A DNA stretch of 64,000 bases from a virus (Duplodnaviria > Heunggongvirae > Uroviricota > Caudoviricetes). Shown piece after piece: positions 3,972 through 45,766 of the stretch; the stretch's first letter is position 1; every line of letters begins with the position of its first letter. Where the stretch lies: IMG/VR virus record IMGVR_UViG_3300042270_000314; one strand, written 5' to 3'. Under the pieces are notes generated by a model. That model worked only from the letters and a program-made list of their open reading frames with translations, did no database searches and was not told where the DNA came from. The position numbers and the translations under genes were made by a program.

Positions 3972-5837
3972 TTACATAGACATCTGATATTCATTAAAAA
4001 ACTCCTCATAGGTTACAATTTTAATATTATTCTTTTTTGCTTTTTTCATTTTAGATGAAGAAGAATTTAAATCATCACACACCAAAATTTCTGTTTCATT
4101 GGAAAAATTAATAATTTCAAAGCCATGTTCCTTAAAAAGCTTTTCAAGTTCTTTGCGAGAAGCAGGGCCCTTTCCTGTAACTGTTACCTTTACGACATTG
4201 GAACTTTCCTCACTTAGAGTTTCCTCATTAAAAGTTAAACCATAGTTTTGACAGATACGATAAACAAGAGCAACGTTTTCAAGACTGTCGACAACCGATT
4301 TGAATATAGATTTACCAAAGCCTGGAATACTTGTAAATAGATTTTCATTAAGAGAAAAAATACTTTCAAATTTTTCTTTCGAAGTTAAAGATTTATCTAA
4401 AGAATCAATAAACTTCTTTGTGTTTTTTGTACCAAAAAAGGGTACACCTACTGCTGCAAGCAAAGTTTCAGGCTTTACATTTTTGATAGACTTATGAATT
4501 TCATCAATGATCATTGAAGCACTGGTTTCTCCAAATCCATCTCTATTCATAATATTATCAACTGTTAATTCAAAAACTTCAGTTAAATCTTTAACTTTGA
4601 GATTTCTAAAAGTTTGAGAAGAAATATTTTCAGCACCAAGTACTCTAAAAAAATATTCTAAAAACCCAATTACTTGTTCATAGCATTTTTTATTTTTACA
4701 AATAAGATCAACGCCCTTCATCTCAAGTTCAGATCCACATGAAGGGCAATTCTTTGCCATATCCATTTTAGCAGCGGGGATTGTTACTTCAATAATCTGA
4801 GGAATGATATCACCAGATTTTACAATCTTTACTTTTGAACTAATTCCAATCTTGTTGTCTAAAACATACTTAGCATTATGAGCAGTGGCTTTAGAAACAT
4901 TTGTACCGTCTATTGGCACAGGAGATTTGAAAATTGCAATTGGAACTACTCTTCCTGTTCGAGAAACATTCCATTCAATATAATCAATTTCAGTTTCAAT
5001 TCCTTCAGAATTTACTTTAAACGCAATCTTATTCTCGGGTCGTTCTACATTTTCTCGCTTATGATTTGTTGGGCAAATAACAAGACCATCTAAATCATAA
5101 CAGTAATCAATCTTCATTGAAACCAAAATACTTTTAAGCTCTTCAACTTTAAGTTCTGAAAGAAGGTGATATTCTACTACATCAATACCCATTTCTGTAA
5201 GTTCATTAAAATCAACAATTAAAGATTCATTAGTTGAATTAATATATTCATAAAACAAACAATCAATGTTTTCACAACCTTCAACACCATCCTTATTAAG
5301 GAGACCGGCAACACCATTGCGAGTATTTGAAAATCCTAGAGAAGCAAAGATATTTTTGTTTAAAAGACATTCACCGCGAAGATCGACCCGGTTTTTGTTT
5401 TTGATTTTCTTTGGGAGAAACTTCAAAGCTTTATGTGTAATATCAAATCCAAAGTGGCCATCCCCACGAGTCGTTGCTAAAACAAGTTCTCCATTTTCAT
5501 ATCGTACAAAAATAGATGCACCATCGAGTTTTGGCATAATACAAAAAAATTCATCACTTGAAAATTTCTTTATCCAAGAAGAAATTGTATCGGTTTTAAA
5601 CTTCTTTAGAGAGCCAAGAACATAATCATGCTTAATCTTTTGAGATTTTGTTGGAACTGGAGCGCCAACTGATTGAAAATATTCATTATCGGGGTAAAGC
5701 ATTTGAGCTTTATCTTTTAATTCATCATAAAATTCATCTGAGAACATCGATGTTTCAGAATTATAATATGCATTGTCTGCATCTTTTAGCAATTCAATGA
5801 TATCATCTTCACACATTAAATTTAACTTATCTAACAT
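3972..5837 (-). CDS. ligA: NAD-dependent DNA ligase
   Basis: KLDG adenylation motif, TRGDG, RGE, VSRTG, CPSC zinc finger, C-terminal BRCT-like region. Confidence 0.93.
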   Translation of the reverse strand: MLDKLNLMCEDDIIELLKDADNAYYNSETSMFSDEFYDELKDKAQMLYPDNEYFQSVGAPVPTKSQKIKHDYVLGSLKKFKTDTISSWIKKFSSDEFFCIMPKLDGASIFVRYENGELVLATTRGDGHFGFDITHKALKFLPKKIKNKNRVDLRGECLLNKNIFASLGFSNTRNGVAGLLNKDGVEGCENIDCLFYEYINSTNESLIVDFNELTEMGIDVVEYHLLSELKVEELKSILVSMKIDYCYDLDGLVICPTNHKRENVERPENKIAFKVNSEGIETEIDYIEWNVSRTGRVVPIAIFKSPVPIDGTNVSKATAHNAKYVLDNKIGISSKVKIVKSGDIIPQIIEVTIPAAKMDMAKNCPSCGSELEMKGVDLICKNKKCYEQVIGFLEYFFRVLGAENISSQTFRNLKVKDLTEVFELTVDNIMNRDGFGETSASMIIDEIHKSIKNVKPETLLAAVGVPFFGTKNTKKFIDSLDKSLTSKEKFESIFSLNENLFTSIPGFGKSIFKSVVDSLENVALVYRICQNYGLTFNEETLSEESSNVVKVTVTGKGPASRKELEKLFKEHGFEIINFSNETEILVCDDLNSSSSKMKKAKKNNIKIVTYEEFFNEYQMSM

Positions 5838-6436
5838 GTTTTAGTATCCTCACTAATAAAAAATTGTCCAAAAATTTGGGTTTTAAATTGTTCTTCTGAT
5901 AACCTGTTTTTAAAGTCATCATAATAAGAATAAATTGTTGTGTTGGGGTCTGTTAAAAAACTACCATATAAATATTTAAAGTCATTTTGTTTCTCTGTAT
6001 CGTGGAATTCAACATCCATATCAATATAGTCCAAACATAAATTACTAATTTGTTTTAAATAACGACAAAGATCTATAAGTTTTTTATTATATCTTCTAAC
6101 AGGACTAGTTTTAATATAGACGGTATCTTCTACATATTTTACATATTCATCATATAAAATGTATTGTTGTGTTTCATTATATAGAAAAAATTCATCTAAA
6201 AATAGATTACTACATTTACATATTCTACCACGAGTATTGGACCTTATGTTGTAAATAAATTCTTGAATTGTAAAAACATCGATACCAGCATCATTATATA
6301 CCCTTTTACATGGGTGTGTTGGCACTACAACATTAATGGGGTGTTGTAAATTATGATTTAGTTTATTATATAAAGAAATAAACGAAGCTGTCTTCCCAAA
6401 TTGCCTGGGTAAAATTTCAAATTCGCATTTTTTCAT
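5831..6436 (-). CDS. P-loop-like hypothetical protein
   Basis: PRQFGKT and LFLDEF resemble Walker A/B. Confidence 0.45.
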   Translation of the reverse strand: MKKCEFEILPRQFGKTASFISLYNKLNHNLQHPINVVVPTHPCKRVYNDAGIDVFTIQEFIYNIRSNTRGRICKCSNLFLDEFFLYNETQQYILYDEYVKYVEDTVYIKTSPVRRYNKKLIDLCRYLKQISNLCLDYIDMDVEFHDTEKQNDFKYLYGSFLTDPNTTIYSYYDDFKNRLSEEQFKTQIFGQFFISEDTKTC

Positions 6437-39254: not shown

Positions 39255-39542
39255 CTAACCTTTGATATAAAACTTTTTAAGTTTTTTAAAATCTAAACCA
39301 ACAGAAGCAAAAATCTTTTCAATCTCATTATAAACGTAATGTGTTTCTAAAAATAGATACCCGTTTTCTACAGCAAAATCTATTCCTTCATATCCCCAAT
39401 AGTAGTTGTCTTTAAGATAGTCTTCTTTATTGGCAATTTCTTTTATAACCTGTCTAAAAGATTCTTCAGAAGGAAATTCTGATTTATGAATAACATAACT
39501 TGAACTACTTGAATTCGAAACAAAACCTGTTCTAACTTTCAT
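39255..39542 (-). CDS. RTGFVSNSSSSS-family protein, paralog 3
   Basis: N-terminal MKVRTGFVSNSSSSSY. Confidence 0.65.
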   Translation of the reverse strand: MKVRTGFVSNSSSSSYVIHKSEFPSEESFRQVIKEIANKEDYLKDNYYWGYEGIDFAVENGYLFLETHYVYNEIEKIFASVGLDFKKLKKFYIKG

Positions 39543-39771: not shown

Positions 39772-40152
39772 TTAATCAACTTTACCCCCAAGGTTTTCAA
39801 TTAGAGTTCGGGCACCATACGCACCCTGATCAATACTCCCTAAAACAACTTCATTACCTTTGGATATTTCTTCAGTAACAAAATTATAATATTCTTCTGC
39901 ATAATCATCATTTTCTAAGATTTCTTCAAGAGTTAAATCCCCATACCCAAAAACACTTAAAATATATTGTTCTATATCTTCTTTAGTTTTCATAATATAT
40001 CTACGTGAGGAACAATACTCCCTCTCTTCCATAATTTCATAAAATTTATCTAAAGGAATGGTTATGGTTACTTCATTCTGCCCCTTCTTTATAGGAAGCA
40101 TGAAACTACTACTTGAACTATTGGAAACAAATCCAGTTCTGATTTTAGCCAT
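39772..40152 (-). CDS. RTGFVSNSSSSS-family protein, paralog 2
   Basis: N-terminal MAKIRTGFVSNSSSSSF. Confidence 0.65.
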   Translation of the reverse strand: MAKIRTGFVSNSSSSSFMLPIKKGQNEVTITIPLDKFYEIMEEREYCSSRRYIMKTKEDIEQYILSVFGYGDLTLEEILENDDYAEEYYNFVTEEISKGNEVVLGSIDQGAYGARTLIENLGGKVD

Positions 40153-40619
40153 TATCCGTTCCTCCCTGCACCGAATGTAGCCTGACCTCCAAGTTCAAAA
40201 ATGGTTGAAAATATTTCCCGATCTTCTTCATTAAAATCCTCTAAATCAATCTTATCATAGTCCATGTCGATATATTCACCATCATCATCATAGATAGTAA
40301 AAAACTCATCACCTTCTGGCCCATAGGAATCCAGATAAAGAATTTTATCTCCTTCTACAGCTTCACAGGACACAGAAGTATACATAAATGACTCTATTTC
40401 TAGTAGAAATTTATCCTCTTTGTTTCGAACTGTAATTTCTGGATATCCAGAACCAGGTGGGCTCCAAATAAGAGAATTATGATACTTACTAAAAGCTGTA
40501 TCTTTTAGATTAAATTCTACTCCTAGATCATCTCTACCTGCTTTAGTTGCATTTGCAATTCCAATAATAAAACTTGAACTACTTGAATTTGATACAAATC
40601 CTGTTCTAATTTTAGCCAT
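40152..40619 (-). CDS. RTGFVSNSSSSS-family protein, paralog 1
   Basis: N-terminal MAKIRTGFVSNSSSSSF. Confidence 0.65.
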   Translation of the reverse strand: MAKIRTGFVSNSSSSSFIIGIANATKAGRDDLGVEFNLKDTAFSKYHNSLIWSPPGSGYPEITVRNKEDKFLLEIESFMYTSVSCEAVEGDKILYLDSYGPEGDEFFTIYDDDGEYIDMDYDKIDLEDFNEEDREIFSTIFELGGQATFGAGRNG

Positions 40620-40891: not shown

Positions 40892-41026
40892 ACTGTCTCC
40901 TAAATAACCTCGTCTAAATTAATATTCTATTTAAATTCATTTTTCATTGAAGAGAATTGAAATTTTAATGAATTTTTCATTGATCCTTCTTAATTATAAA
41001 TTTACTCAAAAACAAAATTATTTTTC

Positions 41027-41034
41027 TATAAATA
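41027..41034 (+). promoter_or_regulatory. T4-type late promoter upstream of tnpB
   Basis: TATAAATA 30 nt before ATG 41065. Confidence 0.55.
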
Positions 41035-41064
41035 GATATATAATATTAAAACTAGGGTGTAAAC

Positions 41065-42246
41065 ATGATTAGATCATCCAAGCACATTTTGAAGTATCAG
41101 ACTGGTTCCAAGACGAAAGTCTTGAACCAGCTCTTTGATGATTTCAGAACAGACTTGTCTTGGTACATTGATCTAATCATTTCAGGACAATTGCCGCTGA
41201 CCAAGTTCATGTCATCCAAGGATTTGCCATCTGGTATTATTACTCATTCCCAATGGAAACAAATTCTTTATAAGACGGCTTCTGAAATTGTTAGATCCCA
41301 ATACAAACAAGCATCAAATCGAAGATTTAAACACTACAAGAAATTGTTTCATAAGTGCATTACTGCAAATAAGCATTGTTCTTTCACTGACAAGAGATTT
41401 AGTGAACTGAATCTCAAACCAATTCATCAATCAAAATTCTTTAGTAAACCAGACTTGAAGAATTTCTCAATCACATTAGATTCTAGACTTATTGATTTTC
41501 AATATGGCTTGCATTTCGATGAATTCATTAGGATCAAGACCCCGTTGTTTCATGAACACAAGAAACGTGCTATTACAATTAATGTTCCTATCAAACATCA
41601 CAAACATAGTCGAAAATTCGATTCTTGGGAACGAAAAAATTCAGTTCGATTGACACTAAAGAATGGCGTCATGAATTTTGAATTGATCTATGAGAAAGAT
41701 GCACCAGCACTAAAGACTGAGGGTAAAGTTCTTGGAATCGACCAAGGTTACAAGAAATTGATGTCATGTTCAGATGGAACATTTCTCGGCTCAGAAATGG
41801 AATCGATCTACAAGTTCATTTCCAACAAAAAGCAAGGTTCCAAAGCATTCAAGAGGGTATTAGCCCACAGGACTAATGAAACGAATCGAATTTGCAATTC
41901 TCTAAATCTTTCTGATGTCAAAGAACTTGTGGTCGAAGACCTCAAGAACTTGAAACACAAGACAAAATTGTCAACAAATTTTATGAACAAGATGCAACGC
42001 TGGGTTTACCCAGCAGTACTAAGCAAACTTGAATCCTTGGCTGAAATGAACGGTGTTCATTTCACGAAAGTGAATCCTGCTTATACTTCGCAGACTTGTT
42101 CTAACTGCGGATGCGTGGACCCTGGGTCTCGCCAAGGCGAAGACTTCAAGTGTCTGCACTGTGACCATGAGATTGATGCAGATTGAAACGCCTCAATCAA
42201 CATTGCTCGTTTGGGAATTTATAGTTCCCAAAGTTCAAAAAGCTAA
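41065..42246 (+). CDS. tnpB: TnpB RNA-guided endonuclease; in-frame TGA at 42184-42186
   Basis: RuvC-I GIDQG, RuvC-II VVEDL, YTSQTCSNC...CLHC zinc finger, RuvC-III DAD[TGA]NASINI. Confidence 0.9.
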
Positions 42247-42267
42247 TTTCATTGTTTTTCATTGAAA

Positions 42268-42568
42268 TTAGCAACTATAATGCAAAAACTTTTTTAGTTT
42301 TTCTGATTTATTATCAATTCTATCCTTAATATGATCCTCATCCAGCATTAGACTAGTCACAATATCAATTGCCAAAAGAACATCACCAATTTCCTTTTCC
42401 AAAAAGTTTTCTATTGGTGGGATTATCCATCCAATTGGAATCAAGCCCATGCCTAAGAATTTTACCAACTACTTGTATCACTTCTCCACATTCTTCAGAT
42501 AATAGAGCTAATGATTCAAGTTGTTCATTTGAAAGTCCATTAACATGGTCCATTCTGTTCTTCCTCAA
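42268..42568 (-). pseudogene. MazG-like pyrophosphohydrolase, frameshifted at 42401-42405
   Basis: LLSEECGEVIQ...KILRHG in one frame and LEKEIGDVL in the next; one extra T in a T5 run. Confidence 0.6.
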
Positions 42569-44240: not shown

Positions 44241-45260
44241 TTAAATCCTATACATATCTAAAATTGTTTGGTTGATAAGCTTGTGATTCACAGTTGTTTT
44301 GTTATGGATAGATTCTAATTTAAGTTTTACTGTTTGTAAACCATCATCAATAAGATTCCCCACTTCTTCTATAGAAATTTTCCCATACTTGATATCTTTT
44401 AAAAATTCTCTATCAGCAAGTGGATATTTAATTTTCCCAGTATCAAGTAATTCAATAGCTTGTAAAATGCAGCGATAGGAATGATGTACTGCTTTCCAAT
44501 CTGTGCCATCCATTGCTTTCTTGGATCTTTCTCCGTATCTTTCTAATTCTGATTCTAATCTACGGAAAAATTCCCCAACTGAAATATCTAAAAGATGAAC
44601 TTTACCACCAATGCGAATTGCTTTTCTTCCGTCCTGGCATACTTCATATTTGCAAAAAATTGTGTCAGCGCATTGTTCAAGGATTTTTTCATAAATTTGT
44701 TCAAGTTTATATTCAATATAACCATCCATAGATCTGTTCTGAGGAAGCTTTGAAATTTCTTCTTTTGTTACTTCATAAACCTTTGTAAGTTTAGCAGCTC
44801 GGCTTCCTTTAAGATTGTAACGATCTGACATACTAACGACATAACCTAAAACCCCTCTCATATTTGACATATCAAAATATTCTGTAGGGGAACTAAAAAT
44901 TCTATACATTAAACGATTTTTGTAAAGAACAGCATCTTTATTTGTAAAAGAATATAAAATGTCAATAGCATTTGTATCACCTTGTCGAAGAAGATCCAGG
45001 AAGAATTGAATAGACCATCCTTGGCAATCAATATCTTCAGATGAATTTGCTTTCTTATCACTAGATGTATTCATATTCAAATTTCTTGATGCAATACCAA
45101 AAACACAGTCTTCCAAAGATGGTTTAAAAATAAATTTTACATCAGTATCAGAATTTTCATTATCTGTACCATAAAGCTTAGATCCCATCAAGGAAACATA
45201 AAGAAGTTCATATCCTTTAGGGAGATTTTTATTGATTGTTTCGAGGATTTTTTCTTTCAT
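44241..45260 (-). CDS. Pol-beta-superfamily nucleotidyltransferase
   Basis: GSKLYGT...SDTD, DWKAVHH.YR. Confidence 0.8.
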   Translation of the reverse strand: MKEKILETINKNLPKGYELLYVSLMGSKLYGTDNENSDTDVKFIFKPSLEDCVFGIASRNLNMNTSSDKKANSSEDIDCQGWSIQFFLDLLRQGDTNAIDILYSFTNKDAVLYKNRLMYRIFSSPTEYFDMSNMRGVLGYVVSMSDRYNLKGSRAAKLTKVYEVTKEEISKLPQNRSMDGYIEYKLEQIYEKILEQCADTIFCKYEVCQDGRKAIRIGGKVHLLDISVGEFFRRLESELERYGERSKKAMDGTDWKAVHHSYRCILQAIELLDTGKIKYPLADREFLKDIKYGKISIEEVGNLIDDGLQTVKLKLESIHNKTTVNHKLINQTILDMYRI

Positions 45261-45415: not shown

Positions 45416-45766
45416 CTAAACATCGCAAATACACCATTTTCCGTCATCTTTACATTCAACTTTCAATTTGTAATCTTTCATAGATTCATCAACGGCTGCT
45501 TCTATAATTGCCATCTTTCCCGATTTCTTCATAACCTCTAAACGTAACCAAGATTTAAATTCTTTTGTATTGACGCACTTCTCAAAGGCATCTCTTTTAT
45601 TCTTGTGTCGTGAACGAGAAGCCTGTGAATACCCGTGAGATCCACTAGGTCTATGAAAACAGTGAACAGCTGAAGAAGTTTTATTTACTTTTTGGCCACC
45701 ACTCCCCGACGCTCTAGTATATGACCATTCAAAATCATCCGCAGTTAAAGAAAATAGTTTATCCAT
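45416..45766 (-). CDS. class I release-factor-like GGQ-domain protein (ArfB-like)
   Basis: RASGSGGQKVNKTSSAV...H.PSG...SRS..KNK; lacks stop-codon recognition domains. Confidence 0.85.
   Translation of the reverse strand: MDKLFSLTADDFEWSYTRASGSGGQKVNKTSSAVHCFHRPSGSHGYSQASRSRHKNKRDAFEKCVNTKEFKSWLRLEVMKKSGKMAIIEAAVDESMKDYKLKVECKDDGKWCICDV

Follow-up and report, generated by a model that had tools for sequence, protein, structure and literature searches.

The element studied here occupies positions 40935-42278 of the window, the whole 64,000-nucleotide stretch of phage DNA that was analysed, and comprises 1344 bp. It is of the IS200/IS605 type and tnpB-only. The gene lies on the plus strand (41065..42246), was recognized by Pfam PF07282 and by homologues, and encodes 393 amino acids when TGA is read as tryptophan. 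It is preceded by a left end (LE; 40935..41064, plus strand) starting with (A)TTCATTTT, where homology among copies begins. On the other side the element is closed by the right-end terminus AACTAT (42273..42278, plus strand), at which the homology of six copies stops. A MazG-like gene on the minus strand (42268..42568), a homologue of which in another phage matches PF03819, runs into the element with its 3′ end.

Element ends and insertion sites

Five further copies were detected in related phage contigs, with 93-95% protein identity. Because homology among the six copies, located at different sites, stops at both ends, the ends of the element are fixed: in the alignment the right end is exactly 42278 and the left end 40935 or 40936, so that the boundaries given in the initial annotation are reproduced on the right and to within 1 nt on the left. 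The sequence common to all six copies extends only from (A)TTCATTTT to AACTAT. The copy alignment also delivers a candidate transposon-adjacent motif (TAM) in the left flank, TTTAAA (40930..40935, plus strand), the A at 40935 being assignable either to the flank, as its final base, or to the element, as its first. TTTARA adjoins the left end in all five copies in which this end is intact, as TTTAAA here and as TTTAGA at the same place in the other four, with unrelated outer flanks. The earlier guess of TTTAA as TAM fits this pattern. At this base composition the chance of finding the motif is about 0.003 per site, and it is found at five independent insertion sites; it is established for this subfamily only, since left ends in the wider clade are not reliably callable from pairwise upstream alignments. 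At the opposite end, [AG]ACT[AG]T terminates the element in most of the clade. These features exceed chance, as TTTARA recurs at five sites and the hairpins described below, like AACTAT, recur in distant relatives. No duplicated flank was seen at the element ends in the six-copy alignments. The locus thus combines what defines IS200/IS605 elements: its ends are defined and bear subterminal hairpins, it lies 3′ of a short conserved motif, and the target site is not duplicated. A weak inverted repeat in the LE (about 40933-40975) folds no better than shuffled sequence. An IStron was ruled out, since an Rfam scan found no group I intron.

The exact right end changes the reconstruction of the empty site. 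TTTAA had been rejoined to ATAATGC in the initial annotation. The AT in front of AATGC is part of the conserved terminus AACTAT, which leaves TTTAA(A) followed directly by AATGCAAAAAC as the empty site. At present the MazG-like gene ends in ...KKFLHYSC*, its last three codons and stop coming from the element; excision would give ...KKFLHF* or ...KKFLHFK*, and not the extension to ...KFLHYLNRILI* that had been proposed. This gene is in addition split by a +1 frameshift at about 42405-42415, present in identical form in six independent contigs. A sequencing error at the frameshift was rejected because the independent assemblies are identical.

Between related phages, presence/absence polymorphism exists at otherwise syntenic sites: three sites that are occupied in a related 165-kb contig are without element in this genome. 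In the same contig the region of the site studied here has a different gene content, with neither the element nor the MazG-like gene. One copy in the related phage adjoins a macro-domain gene from which about 430 bp are missing, so insertions are not always harmless. A check for empty-site alleles in related phages had been suggested, and no clean allele of this site was obtained. Scans of IMG/VR proteins with both flanking genes gave no close relative, and exact-protein look-ups delivered 16 and 18 contigs from JGI and Logan. Among those listed there was no empty allele: wherever the site is covered the element is present, and short contigs end within it. The reconstructed empty junction, searched as an exact string, had no match in IMG/VR, and three matches in JGI metagenomes are attributed to chance because their flanks are unrelated. 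Homing at this site is accordingly something we infer; as all site-covering contigs carry the element, the sampled populations perhaps no longer contain a target for it.

TnpB and the phage genetic code

The PF07282 match covers residues 319-380 and spans the in-frame TGA (E = 2.9e-20; 72.6 bits versus a cut-off of 26.3). The three RuvC acidic residues noticed in the initial annotation are D226, E291 and D373. In an alignment of 37 sequences, the columns of D226 and E291 show no variation and that of D373 is conserved to at least 90%. All three align with catalytic motifs of solved Cas12f and TnpB proteins, E291 and D373 with the EDL and NAD motifs of a solved Cas12f. The zinc ribbon (TNB) is represented by two CxxC pairs within residues 345-366, and its four cysteines (C345, C348, C363 and C366) are invariant. 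As the catalytic triad is intact, the protein is not a dead regulator of the TldR type. We found 1039 homologues, mostly of about 395 amino acids. An AF2 model (pLDDT 87.6) predicts a full-length TnpB/Cas12f fold; the best Foldseek matches were AsCas12f (E = 4e-16) and the TnpB complexes of ISFba1 and ISDra2 (1e-12), with TM scores of 0.50-0.57 and an identity to solved proteins of only about 16-19%. The structures 8H1J, 8EXA and 8IAZ are those of characterised TnpB-omega-RNA nucleases (ISDra2, ISFba1). Among the copies, dS amounts to 0.5-0.8 and dN/dS to 0.03-0.09, including between three copies within one genome. By these comparisons tnpB is full-length and selectively maintained. The copies are old (dS of at least 0.5) and offer no evidence of recent transposition.

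The in-frame TGA (42184..42186, plus strand) is codon 374 and takes the position x of the DAD-x-NAS motif, which reads DADWNASINI with Trp374. It is kept in all six close copies, and changes in the 19 codons that follow are almost all synonymous third-position changes. Homologues have Y, L, I or F at this position and, in one case, W. The helix of residues 372-385, including residues after the TGA, is confidently modelled by AF2, and the residues past the TGA belong to a RuvC helix conserved across the whole family. Elsewhere in the genome, Pfam domains read through in-frame TGA in the UvsW, sheath, portal, gp23 and epimerase genes, with two of the three UvsW TGAs aligning with Trp of T4 UvsW. 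A sister TnpB of 74% identity has TGA at two family-conserved Trp positions. In total, TGA accounts for 128 of the 480 Trp codons of the genome, and, high dS notwithstanding, no exchange between TGG and TGA was seen among the copies at any of the 30 Trp codons. Judged by this conservation, TGA is a sense Trp codon throughout the genome of this T4-like phage, and the view that TnpB is written in the code of its phage holds for this gene and for the sister TnpBs. The initial annotation had placed the TGA correctly within DADxNAxxNI; it does not split the motif, being an ordinary Trp codon, and in sister subfamilies TGA occurs at other conserved Trp positions. A tRNA with a UCA anticodon was not found among the 10 tRNAs of the 133-kb record.

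Reading as glycine (code 25) or selenocysteine was rejected because TGA aligns with conserved Trp and the family is aromatic or aliphatic at the position. A sequencing error at the TGA was likewise rejected, the independent assemblies being identical there. Annotation with the standard code cuts TnpB off immediately behind the last catalytic residue and would list the gene as a pseudogene. As in phages with a recoded stop codon (code 4), TGA is used as Trp in many genes beside TGG; the recoding is a property of the carrier phage, whereas the element merely shares the code.

Promoter motif, predicted omega-RNA and guide

Inside the LE, a T4-type late promoter motif, TATAAATA, is located at 41027..41034 on the plus strand and ends 30 nt before the ATG, at the distance stated in the initial annotation. 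Of its 50 occurrences in the genome, 16 lie at most 60 nt upstream of a gene start versus 4% expected (eight-fold enrichment), and the genes concerned include those for sheath and major capsid. The element thus bears a late promoter motif of its phage, as had been proposed. Three of the five other close copies retain the motif, as do two subfamilies that are further away; it is lost in one close copy and replaced by TATAAAGA in another. A σ70-like TATAAT a few bases downstream of TATAAATA is invariant. Given this loss and change of the motif beside an invariant TATAAT, late timing is tentative.

Two hairpins were found towards the right end. The one in the 3′ coding end (42210..42232, plus strand) has a conserved TTATAGT loop and, by covariation, is a probable scaffold stem of an omega-RNA: compensatory double changes among 32 relatives are seen in 6 of its 7 pairs, and 97% of the cells pair, versus 72% in shuffled alignments and 39-66% when the partners are slid. 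The second (42242..42272, plus strand) is the terminal right-end hairpin, with a stem of 10 bp. It had been described before and is real by its fold score (z = -3.2 as DNA, -5.4 as RNA); its conserved position is as expected of a right end and omega-RNA. It holds the stop codon of tnpB (42244-42246) and, on the opposite strand, that of the MazG-like gene (42268-42270). In 30 of 32 relatives, a hairpin of differing sequence ends 2 nt before the last four bases of the terminus (CTAT or CTGT). By these sequence criteria, the 3′ coding end and the right end carry conserved hairpins of the kind that forms omega-RNA scaffolds. An Rfam scan found no family matching the RNA module of the element.

Two other roles of these structures are conceivable. 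The 3′ hairpins could serve TnpA on single-stranded DNA, and the hairpin at 42242-42272, which is followed by a T-run on the minus strand, could end the MazG-like transcript. Such a terminator was not called by the consensus scan because the stem has too few G-C pairs, and we regard termination as a possible secondary role.

According to IS200/IS605 architecture, the right flank (42279..42298, plus strand) would provide the guide and, in the empty site, the half of the target after the TAM. We infer this placement, in line with the initial annotation, with the guide starting at 42279 (AATGCAAAAAC...), two bases later than was proposed there. In the DNA searched, exact matches to the flank at 42279-42298 are confined to the element's own flanks, preceded by AACTAT and without TAM, and in exact searches the guides of all six copies match their own flanks only, again without TAM.

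Proposed spread of the element and its relatives

We regard this locus as probably a tnpB-only insertion element of the IS1341-like group that is resident in T4-like phages reading TGA as tryptophan. On the sequence evidence it appears to be the phage-adapted form of an already known kind of element, with an intact gene that looks functional. The observation of an orphan tnpB element with intact catalytic residues, from which the analysis started, is thereby partly confirmed and holds in large part; the accompanying interpretation as a whole is partly supported. The likely explanation of the element, in our opinion, includes a homing cycle. Late in infection, once TGA is decoded, TnpB would be made and would bind an omega-RNA processed from the tnpB transcript, with the right flank (AATGCAAAAAC...) supplying the 16-20 nt at the 3′ end of that RNA. 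The complex would cut phage genomes in which TTTAR directly precedes that flank, i.e. the element-free allele, and recombination-dependent replication would repair the break from an element-bearing genome, by which the element would be restored or spread like the seg and mob homing genes of T4. Movement to a new site would need another factor, most likely a Y1 TnpA acting in trans, and occasional recombination at the repeated late promoters may add to it. TnpB-driven restoration and a TnpA-independent spread in a plasmid population have been reported (PMC10055086; reviewed in PMC13565253).

How much of this cycle has to be assumed depends on the supply of transposase. In a conventional insertion sequence mobilised in trans by a Y1 TnpA, whether encoded by the host, by a co-infecting phage or in the 40% of the genome that was not sequenced, TnpB would only restore the element after excision and there would be no drive from phage to phage; to this explanation we give a little less than an even chance. 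Precise ends and TTTARA at five unrelated sites are the signature of a TnpA-type insertion. The 133-kb record is estimated to be only 58% complete, and a Y1 transposase is encoded in 2 of 42 related TnpB-bearing phage records. However, the search for Y1 transposase (PF01797) found none in this record, as the initial annotation had assumed, and PF01797 had no match in two related records. It is encoded in only one of eight near-complete related phage genomes, several of which hold two or more tnpB copies. The absence of PF01797 fits the tnpB-only IS1341-type subgroup and not the autonomous IS605/IS608 type. Furthermore, the high divergence of the copies is unlike the products of recent TnpA bursts, and in infections by T4-like phages the host genome is usually silenced and degraded.

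A different question is whom the nuclease serves. It could have been co-opted by the phage, e.g. for excluding related competitors by cutting element-free genomes or for another RNA-guided function, and be kept for the benefit of the phage. The long life of each copy under strong purifying selection, even of three in one genome, agrees with this, as do the phage late promoter motif, the constancy of the Trp codons and at least one sister copy that has lost its left end, sits between repeated late promoters and still has an open tnpB. Yet a dead regulator of the TldR type is contradicted by the intact triad, the guides are local flanks that match nothing else in the DNA searched, related phages carry insertions at different places, as a selfish element would, and one insertion accompanies the partial loss of a gene. 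We consider co-option unlikely. Far less probable still is a decaying relic, in which TGA is a true stop, the 373-residue product inactive and the element an immobile fossil. The standard-code frame indeed stops at 42186, directly after the third catalytic Asp, tnpA is absent from the record and the insertion is fixed among the contigs listed; against a fossil speak the use of TGA as a sense codon throughout the genome, the low dN/dS, the conserved and confidently modelled RuvC helix after the TGA, and the retention, in six copies, of the TGA and of a downstream frame in which nearly all changes are synonymous.

The preferred reading, homing by TnpB and its omega-RNA, has a wider form that we put forward as a tentative and rather doubtful proposal. 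A TnpB lineage specialised on large phages, many of them T4-like, may persist without TnpA as an RNA-guided homing endonuclease or gene drive, with expression restricted to the late phase by two independent locks. One lock would be the late promoter in the transposon end; the other would be the TGA directly after the third catalytic residue, with full-length protein formed only where recoding is active. In this phage lineage tnpA is almost wholly absent, yet several old tnpB copies are under strong selection. If homing from phage to phage is true, an RNA-guided member would join the classic repertoire of T4 homing endonucleases, and this would account for the at least 456 stretches encoding TnpB relatives in IMG/VR phage contigs. 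Cas12 descends from TnpB, which is itself a compact enzyme for genome editing. To our knowledge, the natural role of TnpB, homing by which its transposon is preserved, has been demonstrated in bacteria and plasmids, and not in viruses. The element offers a concrete case in which the TAM candidate (TTTAR), the 20-nt target and, with TGA as Trp, the full-length protein are all defined.

With the tnpB-only elements of the IS1341 group and with ISDra2 and ISFba1 the element shares the protein family and fold, an RuvC triad of D/E/D and the zinc finger. As in these systems, there is no target duplication, insertion occurs by a short AT-rich motif, and a predicted structured RNA module overlaps the 3′ end of the gene and extends to the right end, with a guide that would be taken from the flank. 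In contrast to these systems, the carrier is a lytic-type T4-like phage and not a bacterial chromosome, the left end contains a T4-type late promoter motif, TGA stands for Trp, and the copies are old and diverged instead of recent and near-identical.

Insertion sequences of the tnpB-only kind were described in T4-like phages in 2010 (Timms et al. 2010, PMC2853527). According to the portion of that report considered here, ISCaje1-4, found in the T4-like Campylobacter phages CP220 and CPt10, belong to the IS200/IS605 family; most of them have only tnpB, as here, and they occupy several differing positions in related T4-like genomes, each with a short AT-rich target; one of them also encodes TnpA, and that portion makes no mention of a recoded codon, a late promoter or an omega-RNA analysis (PMC2853527). 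The TnpBs of the Campylobacter phages are only about 27% identical to the one described here, over part of the protein.

The seg and mob homing genes of T-even phages resemble the element as small selfish nuclease genes between or at the ends of phage genes. Their presence varies between related phages, a phage late-type promoter stands in front of them, and the proposed route of spread, a double-strand break repaired by recombination during mixed infection, would be the same. Unlike their GIY-YIG or HNH products, the nuclease described here is of the unrelated RuvC/TnpB type, its target would be read by an RNA guide and a TAM instead of by protein, and transposon ends are present.

Decoding of the tnpB gene

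The plus-strand tnpB reading frame at 41065-42186 stops at a TGA after 373 codons under the standard code; with TGA read as tryptophan, it continues to a TAA at 42244-42246 and comprises 393 codons. Most of the 1039 homologues retrieved by database search have about 395 residues and are colinear up to the last residues. A match to the Cas12f1-like TNB domain (residues 319-380, E = 2.9e-20) spans the TGA. An alignment of 37 homologues revealed D226 and E291 to be invariant, as are C345, C348, C363 and C366, and D373 to be at least 90% conserved. These catalytic and cysteine motifs align with those of solved Cas12f and TnpB proteins. The AlphaFold model built from the same alignment (mean pLDDT 87.6) is structurally closest to complexes of AsCas12f, ISFba1 TnpB and ISDra2 TnpB. 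Here, residues 372-385, which take in the third catalytic Asp, the residue encoded by the TGA and those beyond, form a confidently modelled helix.

This phage reads TGA as tryptophan. In the source IMG/VR record (133 kb, 30.5% G+C), single Pfam domains cross in-frame TGAs when translated through: UvsW helicase (three TGAs), tail sheath (two), T4-type portal (one), gp23 major capsid (one) and an epimerase (two). Of the three in UvsW, two align with Trp of T4 UvsW. When 130 long ORFs of the genome were called with TGA as a sense codon, it made up 128 of their 480 Trp codons; the termination of all these ORFs by TAA or TAG is a requirement of the calling procedure. No tRNA with a UCA anticodon is present among the 10 tRNAs of the record, which is estimated to be 58% complete.

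At the TGA position the homologues carry Y (35), L (31), I (17), F (14) or T (10), and Trp is tolerated, since one more distant phage relative has DADWNGAKNI. The TGA is kept in all six close copies of the gene. Six sites vary in the 19 codons past it, five of them only synonymously at third positions and the sixth by a Ser/Pro exchange. We estimate the chance of at least five such synonymous changes in six at about 3 in 1000; codon periodicity therefore goes on beyond the TGA. The initial annotation described this TGA as splitting the DAD motif. It does lie at the motif, but two sister elements, one 74% identical on the same NCBI contig as a close copy and one 57% identical on another recoded T4-like contig, have Leu here and use TGA elsewhere, where Trp is conserved in the family. 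Hence, TGA use is general to the lineage and no special split of the motif is indicated.

Each close copy (window, L002-L005 and L055:593-1774) has four TGG and one TGA Trp codons, with no TGG/TGA switch at any of the 30 codons. At a dS of 0.5-0.8 such constancy is mildly unexpected (roughly p = 0.04 in a simple model), and the choice between the two codons may be non-neutral. Two more distant phage TnpB genes, L082 and L083, are intact except for a single in-frame TAG at codon 331, which suggests that TnpB elements also live in TAG-recoded phages.

Element ends, copies and the 3′ module

Scans of IMG/VR and an NCBI contig delivered five additional copies with 93-95% protein identity to the window TnpB: a 165-kb contig of a related phage has three, a 28-kb contig has one, and the fifth is located among T4-like head genes in a metagenome assembly from NCBI. 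Where copies were aligned including their flanks, homology is confined to (A)TTCATTTT through AACTAT, which places the element at 40935/6-42278 (1344 bp). Judged from this alignment, it is a mobile element with exact ends. The intact left ends of five copies adjoin TTTAAA (window) or TTTAGA (the other four), the outer flanks are unrelated to one another, and no target duplication was seen in the aligned flanks. Three element-bearing sites of the related phage are element-free in the genome of the window, and the region of the related phage syntenic with the window insertion contains different genes without the element. One copy (L005:3807-5290, in the related phage contig IMGVR_UViG_3300028601_000019) is inserted after codon 22 of a macro-domain gene, of which about 430 bp are missing; they are retained in the window's own genome around 5665-6390. 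In the sixth copy (L003:3870-5260) the left end is replaced and ACG is found where the others have ATG. This copy is flanked on both sides by a short repeat containing the late-promoter-like ATATAAATAG, which hints that recombination at promoters can move the tnpB cassette.

Pairwise dS among the six copies is 0.5-0.83 and dN/dS is 0.03-0.09; both hold even among the three copies of one genome. The copies are old and each is under purifying selection, with no recent burst.

The last 259 nt of the element fold better than 200 of 200 shuffles (z = -4.1). An alignment of 32 relatives, beginning 100 nt upstream of the DAD motif and reaching the element end, revealed a covarying hairpin within the coding sequence (42210-42232), having a 7-bp stem and a conserved TTATAGT loop. 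Six of its seven pairs show compensatory double changes, and 97% of cells pair, compared with 72% in shuffles and 39-66% with slid partners. The terminal hairpin noted initially at 42242-42272 is significant on its own. Its sequence varies, and in 30 of the 32 relatives its positional counterpart ends two bases before CTAT/CTGT, the last four bases of the conserved [AG]ACT[AG]T terminus. No Rfam family was matched. TnpB omega-RNAs and the right ends of IS200/IS605 elements are known to be built in this way, and we regard the module as putatively omega-RNA-like.

Outside the window, a 63-bp look-alike of the right end (G000:C1:32995-33057, in the same genome) lies upstream of a scaffold-like head gene, with both hairpins and AACTAT at 79-90% identity and no tnpB. 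At the corresponding position of the sister contig there is a complete element. In the look-alike, the joint between AACTAT and AAATA itself spells TATAAATA, 38 nt before the head gene. Either a remnant or a guide-RNA module standing alone may be present here.

Late-promoter motif, transposase and distribution

The late-promoter motif reported 30 nt upstream of the tnpB ATG is indeed present (TATAAATA, 41027-41034) and lies inside the element. Sixteen of the 50 genome occurrences of this octamer (32%) are located at most 60 nt upstream of a same-strand gene start, against about 4% expected and 0-15% for eight control octamers; sheath and gp23 are among the genes preceded by it. Both more distant recoded subfamilies have the motif, as do four of the six close copies. 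Of the other two close copies, one has TATAAAGA and one a deletion; the L005:3807-5290 copy is among those that lost TATAAATA. A few bases 3′ of the motif, TATAAT is invariant in all copies. From the enrichment and conservation of the motif, tnpB is likely to be expressed late; the invariant TATAAT, being σ70-like, is a point against this timing.

As the initial annotation had stated, no tnpA was found in the 133-kb record (estimated 58% complete); a Y1 transposase was likewise undetectable in two related records. Among 42 further phage records bearing relatives of this TnpB, two encode a Y1 transposase (one of the eight at least 90% complete) and 11 encode a T4-type gp23. At least 456 IMG/VR stretches code for relatives, often several per contig, and 278 GenBank phage records contain a TnpB-like match, the closest from a Desulfovibrio phage (47% identity). 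Such genes are annotated as transposases in many deposited phage genomes, and TnpB-only IS200/IS605 elements were described in 2010 for the T4-like Campylobacter phages CP220 and CPt10 (PMC2853527). A full-text literature search gave, among the matches listed, none combining TnpB, T4-like phages and a late promoter. What is new is that the end of the transposon includes a predicted late promoter, that the element is written in the alternative code of the phage, that its copies are old, diverged and under strong selection, and that tnpA is nearly absent.

The insertion site and its neighbourhood

The AT which had been assigned to the rejoined junction is part of the AACTAT terminus. Without the element, the site would read TTTAA(A) followed by AATGCAAAAAC; the guide is predicted to start at 42279, not as first proposed. 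The neighbouring minus-strand gene (42268-42568) is MazG-like, an assignment which holds via a homologue matching PF03819. It now ends ...KKFLHYSC*, with the last three codons and the stop inside the terminal hairpin of the element; the extension once expected on excision is replaced by a predicted end ...KKFLHF* or ...KKFLHFK*. The gene consists of two overlapping frames with a +1 frameshift in an A/T run near 42405-42415. An assembly error was ruled out, since six independent contigs from JGI and Logan have exactly this sequence; either the gene is a pseudogene or the shift is programmed.

None of the collections searched yielded an element-free allele of this site. Each of the listed contigs that span the flanking genes has the element, and the short contigs end within it, as is usual for a repeat. 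The search for the exact reconstructed empty junction gave no true match, and the guides match their own flanks and nothing else. Homing between co-infecting phages, as initially proposed, is therefore a reading that we infer from the anatomy of the element, from known TnpB behaviour and from the recombination-driven biology of T4-like phages. The TnpB behaviour invoked is covered by PMC10055086 and by a review in which homing into co-infecting phages is a theoretical type (PMC13565253).

Three small minus-strand genes (39255-39542, 39772-40152 and 40152-40619) are alike at the N-terminus, M(A)K(I/V)RTGFVSNSSSSS(F/Y), and differ beyond it. Two of the three were tested and had no Pfam match; the related phage has the same family in the corresponding region. 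An ArfB-like gene (45416-45766, minus strand) encodes a 116-aa protein in which the release-factor domain (PF00472, E = 6e-17) is represented by its GGQ part alone, and adjoins an RlaP-type nucleotidyltransferase gene (44241-45260, minus strand). It may be relevant to the handling of stalled ribosomes in a phage which reads TGA as Trp.
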